Positions 3 through 23,440 are shown, numbered from the stretch's first letter. The stretch: 36,634 nt of DNA from Alphaproteobacteria bacterium (GCA_017534945.1 JAFXVB010000028.1:1-36634), one strand, 5' to 3'. Made by a program: numbers and translations. Notes: generated by a model not told the origin, from the letters alone.

Positions 3-1286
3 GATTGGTGGGGACTGTGTAAAAAATTTAATAAAATTAATATTGGCGATACGCTTACCATGGATGATGGCACAAAAATTCATGTCATTGATAAAGACGA
101 AGAAAGTGGATTATTACTGCATTTTAATTGCGACAATATTTTTGATGTGCTGAATAATGTCGGCAAAATGCCATTGCCACCGTATATGAAGCGCGAAGAA
201 GAGTTGTCTGATCGTGAACGTTATCAAACGGTTTATGCAGATCCCTTGGGGTCTATGGCGGCGCCAACGGCTGGGTTGCATTTCACAGACGAATTGATGA
301 GTGAAATTGAAAAACGTGGTGCAAAAATTGTAAAGATTACATTGCATGTTGGTGCGGGAACTTGGATGCCTGTTAAAACAGAAAATTTAGATGAACATAA
401 AATGCACAGCGAATGGTGCTGTATCACACCCGAACAAGCCGATATAATAAACGATGCTGCGCGCGTAATTGCCGTCGGTACAACATCAATGCGTACATTG
501 GAATCCGCCCACCAGTTGGCATTAAAAAAAATGGCGTGTAAAAATAATTGTTATGCAGATATTCAAAGTTCCCCTCTGGCTAGAGGGGTGCCCGCAGGGC
601 GGGGTGTCGTTTATACACAACTTCAAAAGAACCCAAAATTGAAAGAGCGCGCAAAAGAACTCCGTAAAGCCGGTAGTTTGCCCGAGGCATTGCTGTGGAA
701 AGAAATAAAAAATAAAAAAATAAACGGATTAAATTTTAATCGCCAAACAGTGATAGGAAATTATATCGTTGATTTCTTTTGTCCAAAAACAGGTTTGGTT
801 ATCGAGATTGATGATAAAACACACGATTTCAAGGGTGATTATGACGAGAAACGCGAAGCGTATTTATTATCGTTGGGCTTAACCACGCTGCATATTCCTG
901 CAAGTGATGTTTTACAAGATGCGTTTAGTGTTGCAGAAATGATTAGACGACACCCCGTCGTTTCACGCCACCCCTCTAGCCAGAGGGGAACTCTGTTCGG
1001 TTTTCACAATATCAAAAAGTATGTAAATAACACAAAAATACCTCGCGTTGTTCCAATTTGCCAATCTACAAATATATTTATAACCCCAGGTTATAAATTT
1101 GGTGCGGTGGATGTGTTGCTGACTAATTTTCATTTGCCAAAATCAACACTCTTTATGTTGGTGTCCGCGTTCGCGGGGCTTACCGAGATGAAATCTGCAT
1201 ATGCCCACGCGGTTGCCGAAAAATACAGATTTTTCAGTTATGGCGATTGTTGCCTATTGTTCAAAAAGGACGCACAAAATGATTGA
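3..1286 (+). CDS. queA: S-adenosylmethionine:tRNA ribosyltransferase-isomerase QueA (5' end outside window), carrying an in-frame endonuclease insertion
   Basis: Motifs MPLPPYM, RYQTVYA, AAPTAGLHFT, TLHVGAGT, AVGTTSMRTLES, TNFHLPKSTL, YRFFSYGD. Frame is open back to position 3. Lies upstream of tgt. Confidence 0.96.
   Translation, partial: DWWGLCKKFNKINIGDTLTMDDGTKIHVIDKDEESGLLLHFNCDNIFDVLNNVGKMPLPPYMKREEELSDRERYQTVYADPLGSMAAPTAGLHFTDELMSEIEKRGAKIVKITLHVGAGTWMPVKTENLDEHKMHSEWCCITPEQADIINDAARVIAVGTTSMRTLESAHQLALKKMACKNNCYADIQSSPLARGVPAGRGVVYTQLQKNPKLKERAKELRKAGSLPEALLWKEIKNKKINGLNFNRQTVIGNYIVDFFCPKTGLVIEIDDKTHDFKGDYDEKREAYLLSLGLTTLHIPASDVLQDAFSVAEMIRRHPVVSRHPSSQRGTLFGFHNIKKYVNNTKIPRVVPICQSTNIFITPGYKFGAVDVLLTNFHLPKSTLFMLVSAFAGLTEMKSAYAHAVAEKYRFFSYGDCCLLFKKDAQND
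567..992 (+). mobile_element. Putative REP-like inverted-repeat cassette encoding a DUF559 (Vsr-like) endonuclease domain, inserted in frame in queA
   Basis: 567-590 (agttcccctctggctagaggggtg) is the exact reverse complement of 969-992. 600-610 pairs with 947-957. Interior 612-947 encodes ERAKELRK..PEALLW..FNRQ..IGNYIVDF..LVIEID..H..D..R, the DUF559 pattern. Confidence 0.8.
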
Positions 1287-18350: not shown

Positions 18351-18377
18351 AAATCTTTAATTGAAAAAGGTTTGTTG

Positions 18378-20468
18378 ATGACTAAAAAATTGGATGACGC
18401 AACCAAAATGTTGGTTGATTCATTGCCAGAAAATCTTCAAAAACTGGCAAGTTCGGCAATTGAAAACGGCTATTTTTCGCAAAGCGATTTTCAAGAGGCA
18501 AGTACCTTGGACGAAGTTCCAAATGATGAACAGGCCGAAGTTCTGGATTTCTTTCAGCAAGATTTGGGACTCGAAGTTGTCGAATCCGAAAGTTATTCCA
18601 AGGATATGGACCGTTATTATCATGCCGAAGAAGATGATGACGAACCACGCGATAAAAGTCGTGACCTGTTAAATGCCGAAGCAGAACAGGTTGATGTCAA
18701 TGATGAAGATTATGACCATTACGCAAAACAATTGGAACGCAGTCAAACCGGAACATTGGTCTTGGGTGTCCAAGATTCTGTCCAATCTTATTTGAAACAA
18801 ATTGGTACAGTTCAATTATTGACCGCTGCCGGCGAAGTCGCAATTGCCCAAAGGATTGAGGCTGCATCGCGTTTGATGGTTTATGGCTTGTGCGAAAGTC
18901 CAATGACGATTCAGGCTATGTTGGATTGGTATCAACAACTGATAAACGAAGATATTCGTTTGCGTTATATTATCAACTTGGAAGTAATGTATTCTTCCGA
19001 AGCGGAACAAAAATCACTTGCCGCGATTTCTGAAACATTAAAATCCAAGGGCGTGGACCAGGTTGACGAATTAAACGATGATGATTTAGATGATTTAGAA
19101 GAATCCACCACAATCGAAGATGATGAAGATGATGAAGAAGATGAAGACGAAGACGGTATAAAAAAGGAAGAAACCCCACGTGGTTCTTCGGGTGTGCCAA
19201 TTCCTGTTATGGAAGATGCGGTTATGCCGTTGGTTGTGGATTTGTTTACAAAAATTAAACGCATCTTTAACAGCATGCAAAAATTACAAGCAAATCGTTT
19301 AGCAAACTTACTGGTATCCAATAAACCGGACGAAGAATTGGAAAAGAAATATAACAAAATGCGTCTGGAATTATTCGAAAATGTCAGCAAAATCCGCCTT
19401 AATGATGACCGTATTGCGGAAATCTTGGAACAATTGACCAAACGCGACCAATTATTAATGGGACTTGAAGGTAAGTTATTGCGTCTTGCCATGGCGAACA
19501 AGGTTAAACGCGAAGATTTCTTGGCGGAATATACTGGTAATGAAATCAATCGTAATTGGGTTAAAAAATTACAAAAACATAAAAATCCAGTCTGGGCAAA
19601 TTTTGCAAAGAAATGTGAAAAAGAAATTTTAAAAATCCAAGAAGATATTACGAATATCGCAAATGAAACCGGTCAACCAACTGCGGAATATAAAAAGGTC
19701 GTGGAATTGGTTCGTCGCGGACAAAGCGAGGCCGCACGTGCAAAACGCGAAATGATAGAGGCAAATTTGCGTCTTGTTATCAAATTTGCGAAAAAATCCA
19801 GCAATCGCGGCCTGGGACTTGATTTTTCGGACTTGGTCCAAGATGGCAATATCGGTTTGATGAAGGCTGTGGATAAATTTGATTATCGTTTAGGAAATAA
19901 ATTTTCAACATATGCAACAAATTGGATTCAACAGGGCATTTCGCGCAGTATTGCCGACCAGGCGCGCACGATTCGTATACCTGTGCATATGATTGATAAT
20001 ATACATAAAATCCAACGTGCAACGCGTCAATTTATGCATAAATATGGTCGCGCCCCAACGGCTGAAGAATTGTCAAAAATTATCTACTTGCCGGTGGATA
20101 AGATTCACAAGGCTATGAAGGTGAACTTGAAACCAATATCACTCGAAGCGCCTGTGGGAACCGAAGACGACAGCAGTCGTATTGAAATTATCGCAGATGA
20201 AACAGCCAAGAATCCATTTGTATCTGCGGCACAAAAGAATTTGCGTAAAATTGTCACACAAATTTTGTCGGAATTGGATCCAAAAGAAGAAACAGTCTTG
20301 CGTCAACGTTTCGGGATGAGTACGAATAAAACCAGTACCCTGGAAGAGGTTGGTGAATACATCGGTGTGACACGTGAACGTATTCGTCAAATCGAACAAA
20401 AGGCGTTGAACAAGTTGAAACACCCAACTCGTGCCCGCAAATTACGCAGTTTCTTGGAAGAAGATTAA
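18378..20468 (+). CDS. rpoD: Primary sigma factor RpoD with atypical region 2.3
   Basis: Region 1.2 (YLKQIGTVQLLT), long acidic NCR, MIEANLRLV, GNIGLMKAVDKF, IADQARTIRIPVHM, TLEEVG..VTRERIRQIE. Confidence 0.96.
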   Translation: MTKKLDDATKMLVDSLPENLQKLASSAIENGYFSQSDFQEASTLDEVPNDEQAEVLDFFQQDLGLEVVESESYSKDMDRYYHAEEDDDEPRDKSRDLLNAEAEQVDVNDEDYDHYAKQLERSQTGTLVLGVQDSVQSYLKQIGTVQLLTAAGEVAIAQRIEAASRLMVYGLCESPMTIQAMLDWYQQLINEDIRLRYIINLEVMYSSEAEQKSLAAISETLKSKGVDQVDELNDDDLDDLEESTTIEDDEDDEEDEDEDGIKKEETPRGSSGVPIPVMEDAVMPLVVDLFTKIKRIFNSMQKLQANRLANLLVSNKPDEELEKKYNKMRLELFENVSKIRLNDDRIAEILEQLTKRDQLLMGLEGKLLRLAMANKVKREDFLAEYTGNEINRNWVKKLQKHKNPVWANFAKKCEKEILKIQEDITNIANETGQPTAEYKKVVELVRRGQSEAARAKREMIEANLRLVIKFAKKSSNRGLGLDFSDLVQDGNIGLMKAVDKFDYRLGNKFSTYATNWIQQGISRSIADQARTIRIPVHMIDNIHKIQRATRQFMHKYGRAPTAEELSKIIYLPVDKIHKAMKVNLKPISLEAPVGTEDDSSRIEIIADETAKNPFVSAAQKNLRKIVTQILSELDPKEETVLRQRFGMSTNKTSTLEEVGEYIGVTRERIRQIEQKALNKLKHPTRARKLRSFLEED

Positions 20469-20493
20469 TAAGTCTGGGTGGCCAGAATAATAA

Positions 20494-20528
20494 TTCCCCT
20501 CCTGTGGAGGGGTGCCCATAGGGCGGGG
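20494..20528 (+). repeat. Solitary REP-like double-hairpin repeat, same family as the queA cassette arms
   Basis: ttcccctcc-tgt-ggaggggtgccc-ata-gggcgggg versus ttcccctct-ggct-agaggggtgccc-gca-gggcgggg at 569-604. Confidence 0.85.
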
Positions 20529-20571
20529 AGGGTGAATTACCCGAGAGAGAATAAATCAATAAGGAAACCTG

Positions 20572-21165
20572 ATGAAAAATATTCTCTTGTTTTGTAACGG
20601 ATTATCCGGCACAGGGAAAACTACATTTATAAATACATATGCGATACCGAATGGTTATCATAATTTAATTTCTGCGACAACGCGTAAAATGCGTGAAGGC
20701 GAACTTGACGGCGTTTCATATTATTTTCGTGATGAAAAGTATTTTGAAACAGAAAAATTCGCAACATACCTATTTGTGAACGAGGCTTTTTGGAAACCCG
20801 GCGAACCAAAATGGTTGTACGGTGTTCCTGAATTTGAAATTGAACAAAATTTAGGCAAAAATTTGATATATGATGTGATTCAGCCACGTTATACGCGTGA
20901 ATTGATGAACTGGTTTGTTGCACATAAATTGGATGAACAGTATGAATTCAAGGTTGCTTATTTCACCACTAAACAAGATAACTTTGAAATTGCCGAACAA
21001 CGCGCGGTTATGCAAAATGATTTGGCTGTCCGGCGTGCAAATACTTGCACATGGGACGACTTTGCTCGGGCGCGTGTAAATGTCGATTATGTCACAATGC
21101 CACGCGATAATAAACCAAATGTGGATTTAATCAAACTTGTCCAATCCGCCCAAAACATAAAATAA
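20572..21165 (+). CDS. Guanylate kinase-like P-loop protein (divergent)
   Basis: GLSGTGKTT, ISATTRKMREGELDGVSYYF; the C-terminal half is not canonical Gmk. Confidence 0.75.
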   Translation: MKNILLFCNGLSGTGKTTFINTYAIPNGYHNLISATTRKMREGELDGVSYYFRDEKYFETEKFATYLFVNEAFWKPGEPKWLYGVPEFEIEQNLGKNLIYDVIQPRYTRELMNWFVAHKLDEQYEFKVAYFTTKQDNFEIAEQRAVMQNDLAVRRANTCTWDDFARARVNVDYVTMPRDNKPNVDLIKLVQSAQNIK

Positions 21166-21182
21166 TTTCGTGTATAAAGGAT

Positions 21183-21647
21183 ATGTGTATGCCCCAAGAA
21201 ATTAGATTTTGTACACCCGATGGCCCATATTGGTTTTTAAGCCCTTTGGCTAAATTTCCAATAAAAATGTCTGTTGATGGTGGGGATTATATTTTCCCCA
21301 GTACGGAACATTATTATCAAGCGATGAAATTTTATGCAACCGATATACGGTTTAGCACAATTATTAATTTGGAAAATCCAGACGACGCGCGTTTGCTGAC
21401 AAAAACACCAAAATACAAAATAAATCGCAGGGATGACTTTGATAAGAATAAGTTTGATATTATGGAACGCGGATTGCGGGCGAAATTTGCTCAAAATCCA
21501 ACGGCTGCTGAAATGTTAAAACAAACAGGGGATGCGATATTGATAAAATCTTGTCCTGTATGCTATAAATGCGGCTTTGGTATCGGCAGTGGCACAAATC
21601 GTATTGGAAAAACTTTAATGCAAATAAGGGCGGAATTGCAAAGATAA
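21183..21647 (+). CDS. NADAR (YbiA-like) family protein
   Basis: FPSTEHYYQAMKF, LRAKFAQNP, LKQTGDAILI, GTNRIGKTLMQIR. Confidence 0.88.
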   Translation: MCMPQEIRFCTPDGPYWFLSPLAKFPIKMSVDGGDYIFPSTEHYYQAMKFYATDIRFSTIINLENPDDARLLTKTPKYKINRRDDFDKNKFDIMERGLRAKFAQNPTAAEMLKQTGDAILIKSCPVCYKCGFGIGSGTNRIGKTLMQIRAELQR

Positions 21648-21736
21648 CACAAAATCATTCAAATCGAATATAAAGCGAAATGTGTTGACAAAACGATGTG
21701 TTGTGCTATTGTTTTGGTCAGGGTACAGAATATTAT

Positions 21737-23440
21737 ATGACAAACGATTTTATTGAATTTTTACCTGATATGCAAAGCGTAAATTCTGAGATAACAACAG
21801 GATTTACACTGTTTTGCGACAATGAAAAGCTGGCAAATGCAATTCGTTTGAATTTGTTATGTGATTTTCACATACATTCTATGATTGATTTTGATGATAA
21901 TGGTGCTTATTCTATTATTCCACTTGAAACGCCAGACGATAAAACTATGCAAAACTTTATCTTTCGTGGTTGGAATTGGGATAAAAGTCAAAAATTTATA
22001 CATTATGCAATCACGTTATATAATCAAGATGCCACAATTAAATTATATAATATGCTGGTTGCGCGCGGGTATGATGCGATTTTGATAAATAATAATATGC
22101 AATTAACAGTAAAATGTTTAGACGATTCTCCGCGAAATACTGAAATCAAAGCATTAACCCAAGAATTAATAAAGTTCCAAAAATCATCTCCTGTATCTTT
22201 GGATAATTACTTTAATAAATTATTATTCTGTGGCAAAATAGAAAAAACAGAATATCGCCAAATTCGCAAACAAGAGTTCAGTCTTGATGAAGTGGAACAA
22301 GAGCGAGATATAATAATTCGCGGAATGTTATATCAATATTTTTATAAACGTATTCGTTCTTATTTGATGCCTACGGTATTTTCAAAAAAATTTGATGCAA
22401 ATAAATTAGATGATAAAACGAAAAGAAATATAAATTTAATTCGTGACTATTTGTATGCCGTTGCAGAAAAATATATAGATATGCAAATGATGAATGCAAT
22501 CAGGACAAATCACTCTATTTTTGTGCGCTTTGACTATTTGAAAAGTTGTAATCAGTATAAAGATTATCGTTCGGTACTGAAATTAGCAAAACAGTGGTAT
22601 AAAGAAAAATTACAAAAGGAAAAAATCAAAGAATACAATCTCAGGATGTCTGAAAAAGGCACATATAAAATAATGAATTGTGGTCCTGATTATTATGTCG
22701 TCCAATTATTTACCCCAAAAGCACCGGATTTTGAAGGTAGTATGCTAAATCATTGTGCTGGTGATGGTTATTATGATAATCAAGTACACAAAGAAAATGT
22801 ACAAATATATTCTATACGTGATTATCGTGGTATTCCGCACCTGACTCTGGAAGTAAATGATGGTAAAATAGTTCAATGTTATGGTTATAAAAATCATGTG
22901 CCGTGCGATGCAAAGTTAAGGCAGGTCGTACGTGCGTTGATGCGTCAAGAAAAATTGGACTTGCCAGATATAAACAGTTGGAATAAATTGATTGCATATA
23001 TAAAGCAAGATGGTGTTTTATATGATCTATTTGATTTGCCAAAAGATTTTATAGCACAAAGTACTATAAATTTAAGCGGTATGGATTTACATCAATTGCC
23101 TGATATGTCGACAGTAAAAGTCAAGGGTGATTTTTGGTGTCCAACAAATCAATTATCCACCATTGATGGCGCGCCCTATTCGGTTTCGGGGCATGTTAAA
23201 CTTAGTTATAATCCAATTACATCATTACGCGGATTTCCTCGGCATGTTGGGGGCAAGATTTATTTATCGCATACAAATTTAACCGCCAAATCATTTGTGC
23301 CACTTTATATCGAAAACAAACTTGATGATATTATCGGTTTGGACGACAAAACCATTGCTGCATGGAAACAACAAATAGCACAAAGAAAACACAAATTACA
23401 AACAATTATTACGTCGTTGAGTCAAAGAATTTCAAAATAA
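21737..23440 (+). CDS. PcfJ-domain protein with C-terminal leucine-rich-repeat-like region
   Basis: EGSMLNHCAG..IYSIRD..PHLTLEV..IVQCYGYKN; repeats GDFWCPTNQLSTIDGAP and SYNPITSLRGFP; TTGACA-16-TATTGT at 21685-21712. Confidence 0.7.
   Translation: MTNDFIEFLPDMQSVNSEITTGFTLFCDNEKLANAIRLNLLCDFHIHSMIDFDDNGAYSIIPLETPDDKTMQNFIFRGWNWDKSQKFIHYAITLYNQDATIKLYNMLVARGYDAILINNNMQLTVKCLDDSPRNTEIKALTQELIKFQKSSPVSLDNYFNKLLFCGKIEKTEYRQIRKQEFSLDEVEQERDIIIRGMLYQYFYKRIRSYLMPTVFSKKFDANKLDDKTKRNINLIRDYLYAVAEKYIDMQMMNAIRTNHSIFVRFDYLKSCNQYKDYRSVLKLAKQWYKEKLQKEKIKEYNLRMSEKGTYKIMNCGPDYYVVQLFTPKAPDFEGSMLNHCAGDGYYDNQVHKENVQIYSIRDYRGIPHLTLEVNDGKIVQCYGYKNHVPCDAKLRQVVRALMRQEKLDLPDINSWNKLIAYIKQDGVLYDLFDLPKDFIAQSTINLSGMDLHQLPDMSTVKVKGDFWCPTNQLSTIDGAPYSVSGHVKLSYNPITSLRGFPRHVGGKIYLSHTNLTAKSFVPLYIENKLDDIIGLDDKTIAAWKQQIAQRKHKLQTIITSLSQRISK

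Follow-up and report, generated by a model that had tools for sequence, protein, structure and literature searches.

The rpoD gene of Alphaproteobacteria bacterium GCA_017534945.1 is followed by a 42-nt element that probably (we put the probability at about 0.68) represents a solo, non-autonomous copy of a small selfish triplex-hairpin repeat, whose inverted pairs form the ends of DUF559 cassettes. Unless a contig is named, positions refer to the window, that is, the whole stretch of 36,634 nucleotides that was analysed, which corresponds to contig C1 of the assembly (909 kb in 46 contigs, ~39% G+C, 89.6% complete); this genome is denoted G000 and the other G-numbers stand for its congeners. 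The element, AATT-CCCCTCC-TGT-GGAGGGG-T-GCCC-ATA-GGGC-GGGGAGG-GT, consists of the leader AATT, a triplex-hairpin core and a tail of 2 nt, and lies 24 nt behind the rpoD stop codon and 38 nt ahead of the start codon of a kinase-like gene (Table 1).

Table 1. Positions of the element, its parts, the neighbouring genes and the related copies in G000
Feature	Position	Strand	Basis
rpoD (sigma-70)	18372-20468	+	Pfam Sigma70 regions 1.2, 2, 3, 4 and non-essential region
Weak 5-bp hairpin TCTGG-GTGG-CCAGA between rpoD stop codon and element	20473-20486	+	DNA and RNA folds; passes loose terminator filter only
Solo repeat module, whole unit	20492-20533	+	Covariance model R1 (this copy included in training), 58.2 bits, E 2.5e-14, model positions 1-42 of 42
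Pyrimidine arm Y, CCCCTCC	20496-20502	+	Sequence; paired with 20506-20512 in DNA fold
Purine arm R, GGAGGGG, behind 3-nt loop TGT	20506-20512	+	Sequence and DNA fold
Mini-hairpin hp2, GCCC-ATA-GGGC, turning the chain back	20514-20524	+	DNA fold
Third strand H, GGGGAGG, mirror of purine arm, predicted reverse-Hoogsteen strand	20525-20531	+	Triad analysis
P-loop kinase-like gene	20572-21165	+	Weak Guanylate_kin match
Left arm, queA DUF559 cassette (AGTT/GGGGTGT subtype)	567-609	+	R1, 58 bits
DUF559 (Vsr-like PD-(D/E)XK nuclease) domain, in frame inside queA	636-947	+	PF04480, E 1.2e-25
Right arm, queA DUF559 cassette	948-992	-	R1, 57.5 bits
Cassette arms	C1:567, C1:948, C2:3643, C2:4036		R1
Solo copies	rpoD copy, C17:1648, C17:2108, C23:7605		R1

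When folded as DNA, the two arms of the core pair across the loop of 3 nt into a first hairpin (hp1) with a 7-bp stem, six pairs of which are GC. The linker between the purine arm and the third strand measures 12 nt, comprising a T and the 11-nt hairpin hp2, whose ATA loop is outside the favoured GNA type, and all seven triads of the rpoD copy are isomorphic or allowed (7/7; C:G·G, T:A·A). The spacer folded as DNA contains hp1 and hp2 (z -3.18), whereas the minimum free energy fold of the corresponding RNA shows a different pairing that uses a downstream G-run (z -1.72; 15 of 200 shuffles equally stable); both folds were computed with ViennaRNA, which considers only Watson-Crick and wobble pairs. 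The original prediction included an alternative pairing of 20491-20502 with 20527-20539, which does appear in silico in the RNA fold but gives way to the two hairpins in the DNA fold. This pairing is a by-product of the design, because the 3' heptamer mirrors the purine arm and the palindromic AATT is present on both sides.

Across the family, the unit of ~42 nt comprises, in this order, the leader A(A/G)TT, pyrimidine (Y) and purine (R) arms of 7 nt each with a loop of 3-4 nt between them, a GC mini-hairpin whose loop is usually a GNA triloop, and a G-rich 7-nt third strand (H) that mirrors the purine arm. In an alignment of 102 R1 matches, representing 79 distinct sequences from G000 and eleven congeners, 74 of the 79 distinct copies could be parsed, and the G-rich heptamer behind the second hairpin proves to be an integral component that changes in step with the first hairpin. 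Five isomorphic Y/R/H types, which differ by matched changes in all three strands at positions 2, 6 and 7, were distinguished: CCCCTCC/GGAGGGG/GGGGTGG (22 distinct copies), CCCCTCC/GGAGGGG/GGGGAGG, to which the rpoD copy belongs (16), CTCCTCC/GGAGGAG/GAGGTGG (6), CCCCTCT/AGAGGGG/GGGGTGT (5) and CCCCTTC/GAAGGGG/GGGGTAG (3). The third strand is a mirror, not a complement, of the purine arm and hence matches the rule of the antiparallel purine-motif triple helix (G·G:C, A·A:T, T·A:T). Over the 74 distinct copies, this rule is obeyed by 490 of the 518 R-H triads, compared with 243-306 of 518 (47%-59%) after displacement of the third strand by 1-3 nt, and the observed triad score was reached by 0 of 2000 permutations. 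The linker folds with at least 3 bp in 45 of its 48 distinct versions, with very different stems, and the hp2 loops are mostly GAA (13) or GCA (10); C-GNA-G triloops are exceptionally stable in DNA. As far as can be judged from sequence, the covariation supports a class II purine-motif intrastrand triplex layout similar to that of BoxC/PIT/TMECO, and we infer that the unit could form such a triplex. Structure is thus conserved over sequence, as had been proposed, but the conserved form is a three-part triplex motif and not merely two hairpins.

The resemblance of the rpoD copy to the left arm of the queA cassette, from which the original prediction started, was borne out both by direct reading and by the R1 match. 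Positions 20494-20528 read TTCCCCTCC-TGT-GGAGGGG-T-GCCC-ATA-GGGC-GGGG and positions 569-604 of the left arm TTCCCCTCT-GGCT-AGAGGGG-T-GCCC-GCA-GGGC-GGGG. The claim that the changes are limited to the two loops and one stem pair (T-A to C-G) holds inside 20494-20528 but not over the full unit, which extends past this span to include the leader and the 3' G-rich heptamer: the leader is AATT in the rpoD copy versus AGTT in the queA arms, the heptamer is GGGGAGG versus GGGGTGT in the queA arm, and the full-length identity to the left arm is 32/43. The rpoD copy therewith belongs to a subtype other than that of the queA arms, which have the third strand GGGGTG(G/T) and the leader AGTT. Chance similarity was rejected, given that a degenerate pattern matches twice in the window (queA arm and rpoD copy) against 0.00 matches expected from 100 shuffles, and that the R1 match has an E value of 2.5e-14. 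R1 was trained on six arms, the rpoD copy included, the other five scoring 54-62 bits, and two untrained copies in G000 score 38-39 bits; the rpoD copy is alignable with five cassette arms and one other solo copy.

A scan of the genome with R1 recovers eight copies in G000, all with E values below 1e-7, split evenly between four solo copies and four cassette arms (Table 1). The queA cassette in the window, situated in an open frame that spans positions 3-1286, is bounded by a 27-nt inverted repeat (96% complementary). A second in-frame DUF559 cassette (C2:3643-4079; locus L002:1417-1853) occupies an N-terminal position in queA, at the terminus of contig C2. Since the sequence of this contig seems to run on into the first part of the window, one queA gene appears to hold two cassettes with arms differing in their loops. 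The arms of one cassette are near-perfect inverted copies of each other, loops included, and are unlike those of the other cassette. The third DUF559 gene stands alone and has a start codon of its own (C26:24954-25265; locus C26:24810-25415, L001); it is flanked by the variant CCCCTTC/GAAGGGG/GGGGTAG with the pyrimidine ends pointing inward, opposite to the queA cassettes. The residues D...E-x-D...H, which we take to be the catalytic motif of Vsr-like nucleases, are kept in all three G000 copies of DUF559. Compared with the uninterrupted queA of G041 and G059, the surrounding host loop of the G000 gene also differs (36 versus 11 residues), leaving no clean cassette boundary from which a target-site duplication might be read. 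Most of the 60 congeners have queA open frames of 340-360 aa, and longer ones are present in G057 (626 aa), G018 (571), G021 (543), G042 (518), G062 (516), G012 (509) and G007 (503); the occurrence of long frames in several congeners marks queA as a recurrent host of in-frame insertions.

The stretches C17:1630-4000 (L004) and C23:7600-7760 (L005) are repeat-dense and apparently non-coding, with other hairpin repeat families arranged in tandem modules; CGTCATACCG(C/G)C is present 18 times and GGTATCCAGTT nine times in G000, and the two stretches are reminiscent of BIME-like mosaics. At C17:2108-2190, C23:7605-7687 and in the rpoD spacer of G020, other sequence interrupts hp1 exactly between its pyrimidine and purine arms. 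The insert in C17 and C23 is a 27-nt palindrome, CCCCGCGAAATTGCAAAATTTCGTGGG, which occurs five times in G000, and that in G020 is ~270 nt long. The hairpin loop of hp1 may be an insertion hotspot.

How such units could multiply is illustrated by G007, where three loci can be aligned to a full cassette (arm, DUF559, arm; C11:77345-77865) of the same genome. Each consists of both arms and the first ~50 nt plus the last ~60 nt of the inner sequence, the middle of the DUF559 gene being missing. Since the DUF559 coding sequence is still present at its 5' and 3' ends, these loci are deletion derivatives of the cassette rather than empty sites. Two of the three have an identical deletion junction and unlike outer flanks, which indicates that one deletion derivative was copied to new places and, by implication, that the arms suffice in cis while something acts in trans. 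At the level of sequence comparison, this pattern supports non-autonomous spread of the repeat family and, together with the eight copies in G000, four of them solo, it agrees with the earlier description of the rpoD element as a dispersed, non-autonomous family member. The trans-acting factor could be the DUF559 nuclease. In the mechanism that we propose, the Y and R arms would pair into a hairpin on single-stranded DNA, and the mini-hairpin would fold the third strand back along the purine arm; two inverted units would constitute the ends of a DUF559 nuclease cassette, such as the two lying in frame in queA of G000, and units would be moved in trans by the cassette-encoded nuclease recognizing the folded ends. 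Against this mechanism, PD-(D/E)XK nucleases are not known to perform strand transfer.

In the genus, R1 matches were found in 14 of 24 congeners, at 0 to 51 copies per genome (51 in G007, 41 in G006 and 30 in G015); these counts are lower bounds because many of the G007 copies sit at contig ends. Sixteen genomes of the order that belong to other genera gave no matches. DUF559 was detected in 12 of the 24 congeners, nine of which also contain the repeat, whereas five have the repeat only, three DUF559 only and seven neither. The association between the repeat and DUF559 is accordingly loose to moderate, the related genomes not being independent; G015, for instance, carries its 30 copies with no DUF559 found in an assembly of 79% completeness. 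Beyond the genus, at least 124 stretches from many phyla contain the pattern CCCCTCC-N3-4-GGAGGGGTG-N9-16-GGGG(A/T)GG, the matches listed including Bacteroidota, Cyanobacteria, Verrucomicrobiota, Firmicutes, Patescibacteria, several proteobacterial classes and others, compared with a rough random expectation of ~1 match to this exact architecture in the same amount of sequence. Among the matches listed, 80 loci were taken with their flanks, and a DUF559 ORF lies within 700 bp in 10 of them, with none nearby in the other 70; the commonest leader among the distant matches listed is AATT (44/103), as in the rpoD copy.

Congeners also contain close inverted pairs of the unit, and copies are found inside genes, behind other genes and in both orientations. 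Several G007 copies (L007, L051, L054 and L057) adjoin canonical terminator hairpins such as CCGCCCGTTTGGGCGG, which, together with the placement of the G018 and G020 copies behind rpoD (see below), suggests a preference for gene 3' ends or for the neighbourhood of hairpins. A broader, tentative proposal, which we consider possible though not favoured by the odds, is that the unit would be the cis end of a pan-bacterial, so far undescribed class of mobile elements, with a DUF559 nuclease that recognizes a folded three-stranded end; solo copies, doublets and possibly BoxC/PIT/TMECO would be its non-autonomous offspring, comparable to REPs in relation to RAYTs.

To trace the rpoD copy itself, 30 congeneric rpoD loci, that of G000 included, were compared. 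An R1 copy straight after rpoD was found only in G000 and G018; in G020, the 3' part of a copy lies behind ~270 nt of other sequence in the same spacer, and the reading of G020 as an empty site was rejected on the basis of the alignment, which shows this partial copy. G018 and G020 are the nearest species by the downstream gene (81%-82% protein identity). The G018 copy abuts the rpoD stop codon (0 nt versus 24 nt in G000), has AGTTCC on both sides and differs from the G000 copy in hp2. The G000 copy is flanked on both sides by AATT(C/A)CC and is a singlet devoid of terminal inverted repeats, with no clean empty site, as would reveal a target-site duplication, found among the loci compared. Behind the element, AATTAC...ATCAAT...AAGGAAA is common to the spacers of G000 and G018, and a hairpin with a T run is kept in G018 but absent from the G000 spacer. 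Both G018 and G020 have a terminator-like hairpin on the side of the element that faces away from the rpoD stop codon. The nearest relative of the rpoD copy is a copy in G023 (37/42), whereas its best matches within G000 range from 32/42 to 34/44; in G023, arms of the AATT/GGGGAGG type flank a DUF559 gene.

Within the species, conspecific contigs from four gut metagenomes (goat, sheep and two bovine) span the rpoD copy with neither indel nor joint (4/4), a comparison in which a minority empty allele would be missed, as assembled metagenome contigs drop rare variants. The strains differ from G000 at 6, 8 and 28 of 1001 positions and, in the fourth case, at 5 of 421, and none of the differences listed for the four strains is a substitution in 20373-20591. 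The rpoD copy is old and fixed in its species; the lack of presence/absence polymorphism makes its own mobility historical at best. It had been taken as support for the mobility of the queA cassette, a conclusion that we do not retain: being of another subtype, with its nearest relative in another species, and invariant in 4/4 strains, the copy documents past activity of the family and not present movement of the queA cassette. Presence behind rpoD thus does not vary among the conspecific strains and varies among species, with copies in the two nearest ones. The spacer (20469-20571) lacks any listed substitution although one strain differs at 28 of 1001 positions. Only ~3 differences would be expected there, so this invariance is a weak hint of constraint.

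The three genes downstream of the element had been described as accessory-looking, which does not apply to the first one: a homologue of the kinase-like gene follows rpoD in 18 of the 29 other congeneric loci. The NADAR-domain and PcfJ-like genes (21183-23440) have same-position counterparts in 0 of 29 loci, and only these two of the three look accessory; they may be a recent acquisition.

The site behind rpoD raises the question of whether the element has been co-opted, as a terminator of rpoD or as a 3'-end hairpin that protects the mRNA from exonucleases, in place of a lost canonical terminator. It does occupy the place where a GC hairpin with a T run stands in 23 of 27 other congeneric loci under a loose filter (of the remaining four, one has a hairpin with a 9-nt loop missed by the filter and three run directly into the next gene), no other strong terminator precedes the next gene in G000, the 7-bp stem of hp1 with its six GC pairs would be stable, and the spacer has no listed substitution in four strains. 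Yet, as already pointed out in the original prediction, this terminator-like position comes with no T run: none follows the element in the sequence, and a terminator scan of the + strand over 20000-21300 revealed no terminator-like site. Moreover, the spacer RNA is of ordinary stability and differently paired (see above), and the hairpin with a T run persists downstream of the copy in G018 and, by eye, apparently in G020 too, so that the element is not the terminator there. PIT elements, likewise, have neither promoter nor terminator activity according to an earlier study cited in the available text of Holder et al. (2015; PMC4666352), which also states that RNA does not form purine-motif triplexes; conservation of the third strand, like the GNA triloops, would make sense for DNA. 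Co-option of this kind therefore appears improbable to us. A role as a cis-regulatory RNA, namely a 5' leader of the kinase-like gene, or as a small RNA is hardly credible. A weak promoter-like site (9/12 matches) ends at 20494, just before the element, and the next start codon is near (38 nt), but the five promoter-like sites found are not above the 3.0 expected from shuffles, the identical unit type occurs inside genes, behind other genes and in both orientations, and in 26 of the 29 other congeneric loci the kinase-like gene does without such a leader. Membership in a known RNA family was rejected, all Rfam scores being far below gathering: no family matched the element, the best hit having an E value of 2.9 and 12-15 bits against gathering scores of 37-58.

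A rival of a different kind concerns the family as a whole, whereby the units would be host-level or self-propagating structural DNA, acting as hotspots of recombination or replication pausing in the manner of TMECO and lacking a dedicated enzyme, with DUF559 inserting beside or between them. This is consistent with the 70 of the 80 distant loci listed that are far from any DUF559, with the five congeners that have repeats but no DUF559, and with the sequences nested in the hp1 loop (C17:2108, C23:7605 and the G020 rpoD copy), which fit a fragile or targeted site. The available text of Holder et al. (2015; PMC4666352) reports no mobility genes near TMECO, a motif that it ties to local rearrangement, and counts 23 TMECO copies in E. 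coli; the PF04480 profile has no match in our E. coli control genome, so the nuclease is not needed to keep such repeats. On the other hand, the arms-only units of G007 contain both ends of the DUF559 coding sequence, the arms within a cassette are near-perfect inverted copies including the loops and differ between cassettes, and the presence of DUF559 within 700 bp in 10 of the 80 loci listed would be far above chance for a rare gene of 330 bp. We regard repeats independent of a dedicated enzyme as unlikely, and a neutral selfish insertion as the best reading of the rpoD copy at its site. Such an insertion into the spacer between rpoD and the kinase-like gene would be old, dating to an ancestor of G000, G018 and G020, or the spacer would have been hit repeatedly; the copy would do nothing essential and, rather than an intrinsic terminator, would be at most a stable hairpin on read-through rpoD transcripts.

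Repeats with the potential to form intrastrand triplexes (BoxC/PIT/TMECO) have been known since the 1990s, and we know of no explanation of their function or of the mechanism by which they multiply. Holder et al. (2015; PMC4666352), whose available text cites earlier work by Bachellier and by Hoyne and Maher, describe class II motifs in the order pyrimidine arm, purine arm and reverse-Hoogsteen arm; in E. coli, BoxC/PIT/TMECO have 9-nt arms and a second loop of 3 nt, their copy number differs strongly between close strains, and they form inverted pairs of two subtypes. The repeats described here share with them the class II order, GC-richness, loops that are less conserved than the stems, a dispersed distribution with variable copy number, inverted pairs of two subtypes in some cases and the lack of a transposase or integrase nearby. 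They differ in having arms of 7 nt versus 9 nt, and CCCCTCC/GGAGGGG/GGGGAGG does not fit the TMECO consensus CCCTCNCCC N3-6 GGGNGAGGG N3 GGGNGAGGG. Furthermore, the second 'loop' is a hairpin of 10-16 nt, beyond the loop limits of 1-6 nt (ITxF finder) or 0-10 nt (Hoyne et al.) given in the available text of PMC4666352; once folded, hp2 would act as a short connector. Copies of the present repeat also lie in frame inside genes and at the ends of DUF559 cassettes, for which the available text of that paper makes no mention, the word 'endonuclease' being absent from it. In the portions of the DUF559 literature available, we found no description of cassettes with hairpin or triplex ends, and the link between DUF559 and the repeat is apparently unpublished.

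Other families of small repeats offer partial parallels. REPs and REPINs are likewise short, GC-rich and structured, occur as singlets and inverted doublets and have more repeats than genes, and inverted REP copies flank a low-copy nuclease-type gene (RAYT). In the present case, however, the flanked gene encodes a PD-(D/E)XK (DUF559) nuclease, the third strand has no counterpart in REPs and the REP tetranucleotide differs from the leader A(A/G)TT. With the Y1 transposase profile PF01797, which matched 10 of 14 known genomes, there were 0 matches in G000 (89.6% complete) at E values up to 1; a RAYT-driven REP was accordingly rejected, and the parallel drawn in the original prediction amounts to an analogy. 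With Rho-independent terminators, the rpoD copy shares the position just after a stop codon and a stable GC-rich hairpin, but it has no T run and possesses an extra hairpin and a G-rich tail, and the unit can also lie within coding sequence and in either orientation. Rickettsia palindromic elements and MITE-like repeats are similarly small, structured and non-autonomous, reside in reduced alphaproteobacterial genomes and lie in frame inside genes, as do the queA arms. By description, the Rickettsia palindromic elements, which measure roughly 100-150 nt, are set apart from the much shorter unit of ~42 nt, which as a singlet has no terminal inverted repeats and follows a triplex design. Finally, the ShiLan HNH insertion in phage methylases, an in-frame homing-endonuclease insertion, resembles the queA cassettes in that a nuclease domain lies in frame in a host gene as neither intein nor intron; it differs by its HNH fold, and the available text describes no hairpin or triplex end-repeats (PMC11855218). 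This likeness concerns the cassette, not the solo copy.

For annotation, the rpoD copy implies that a GC hairpin behind a gene in reduced gut Alphaproteobacteria need not be a terminator, and such repeats break assemblies, many copies being located at contig ends. The covariation of the third strand with the hairpin provides evolutionary evidence that the three-stranded fold matters. Taken together, the presence of the triplex unit at the ends of nuclease cassettes and the multiplication of arms-only derivatives provide a family of this kind with a candidate enzyme, DUF559, and a candidate substrate.
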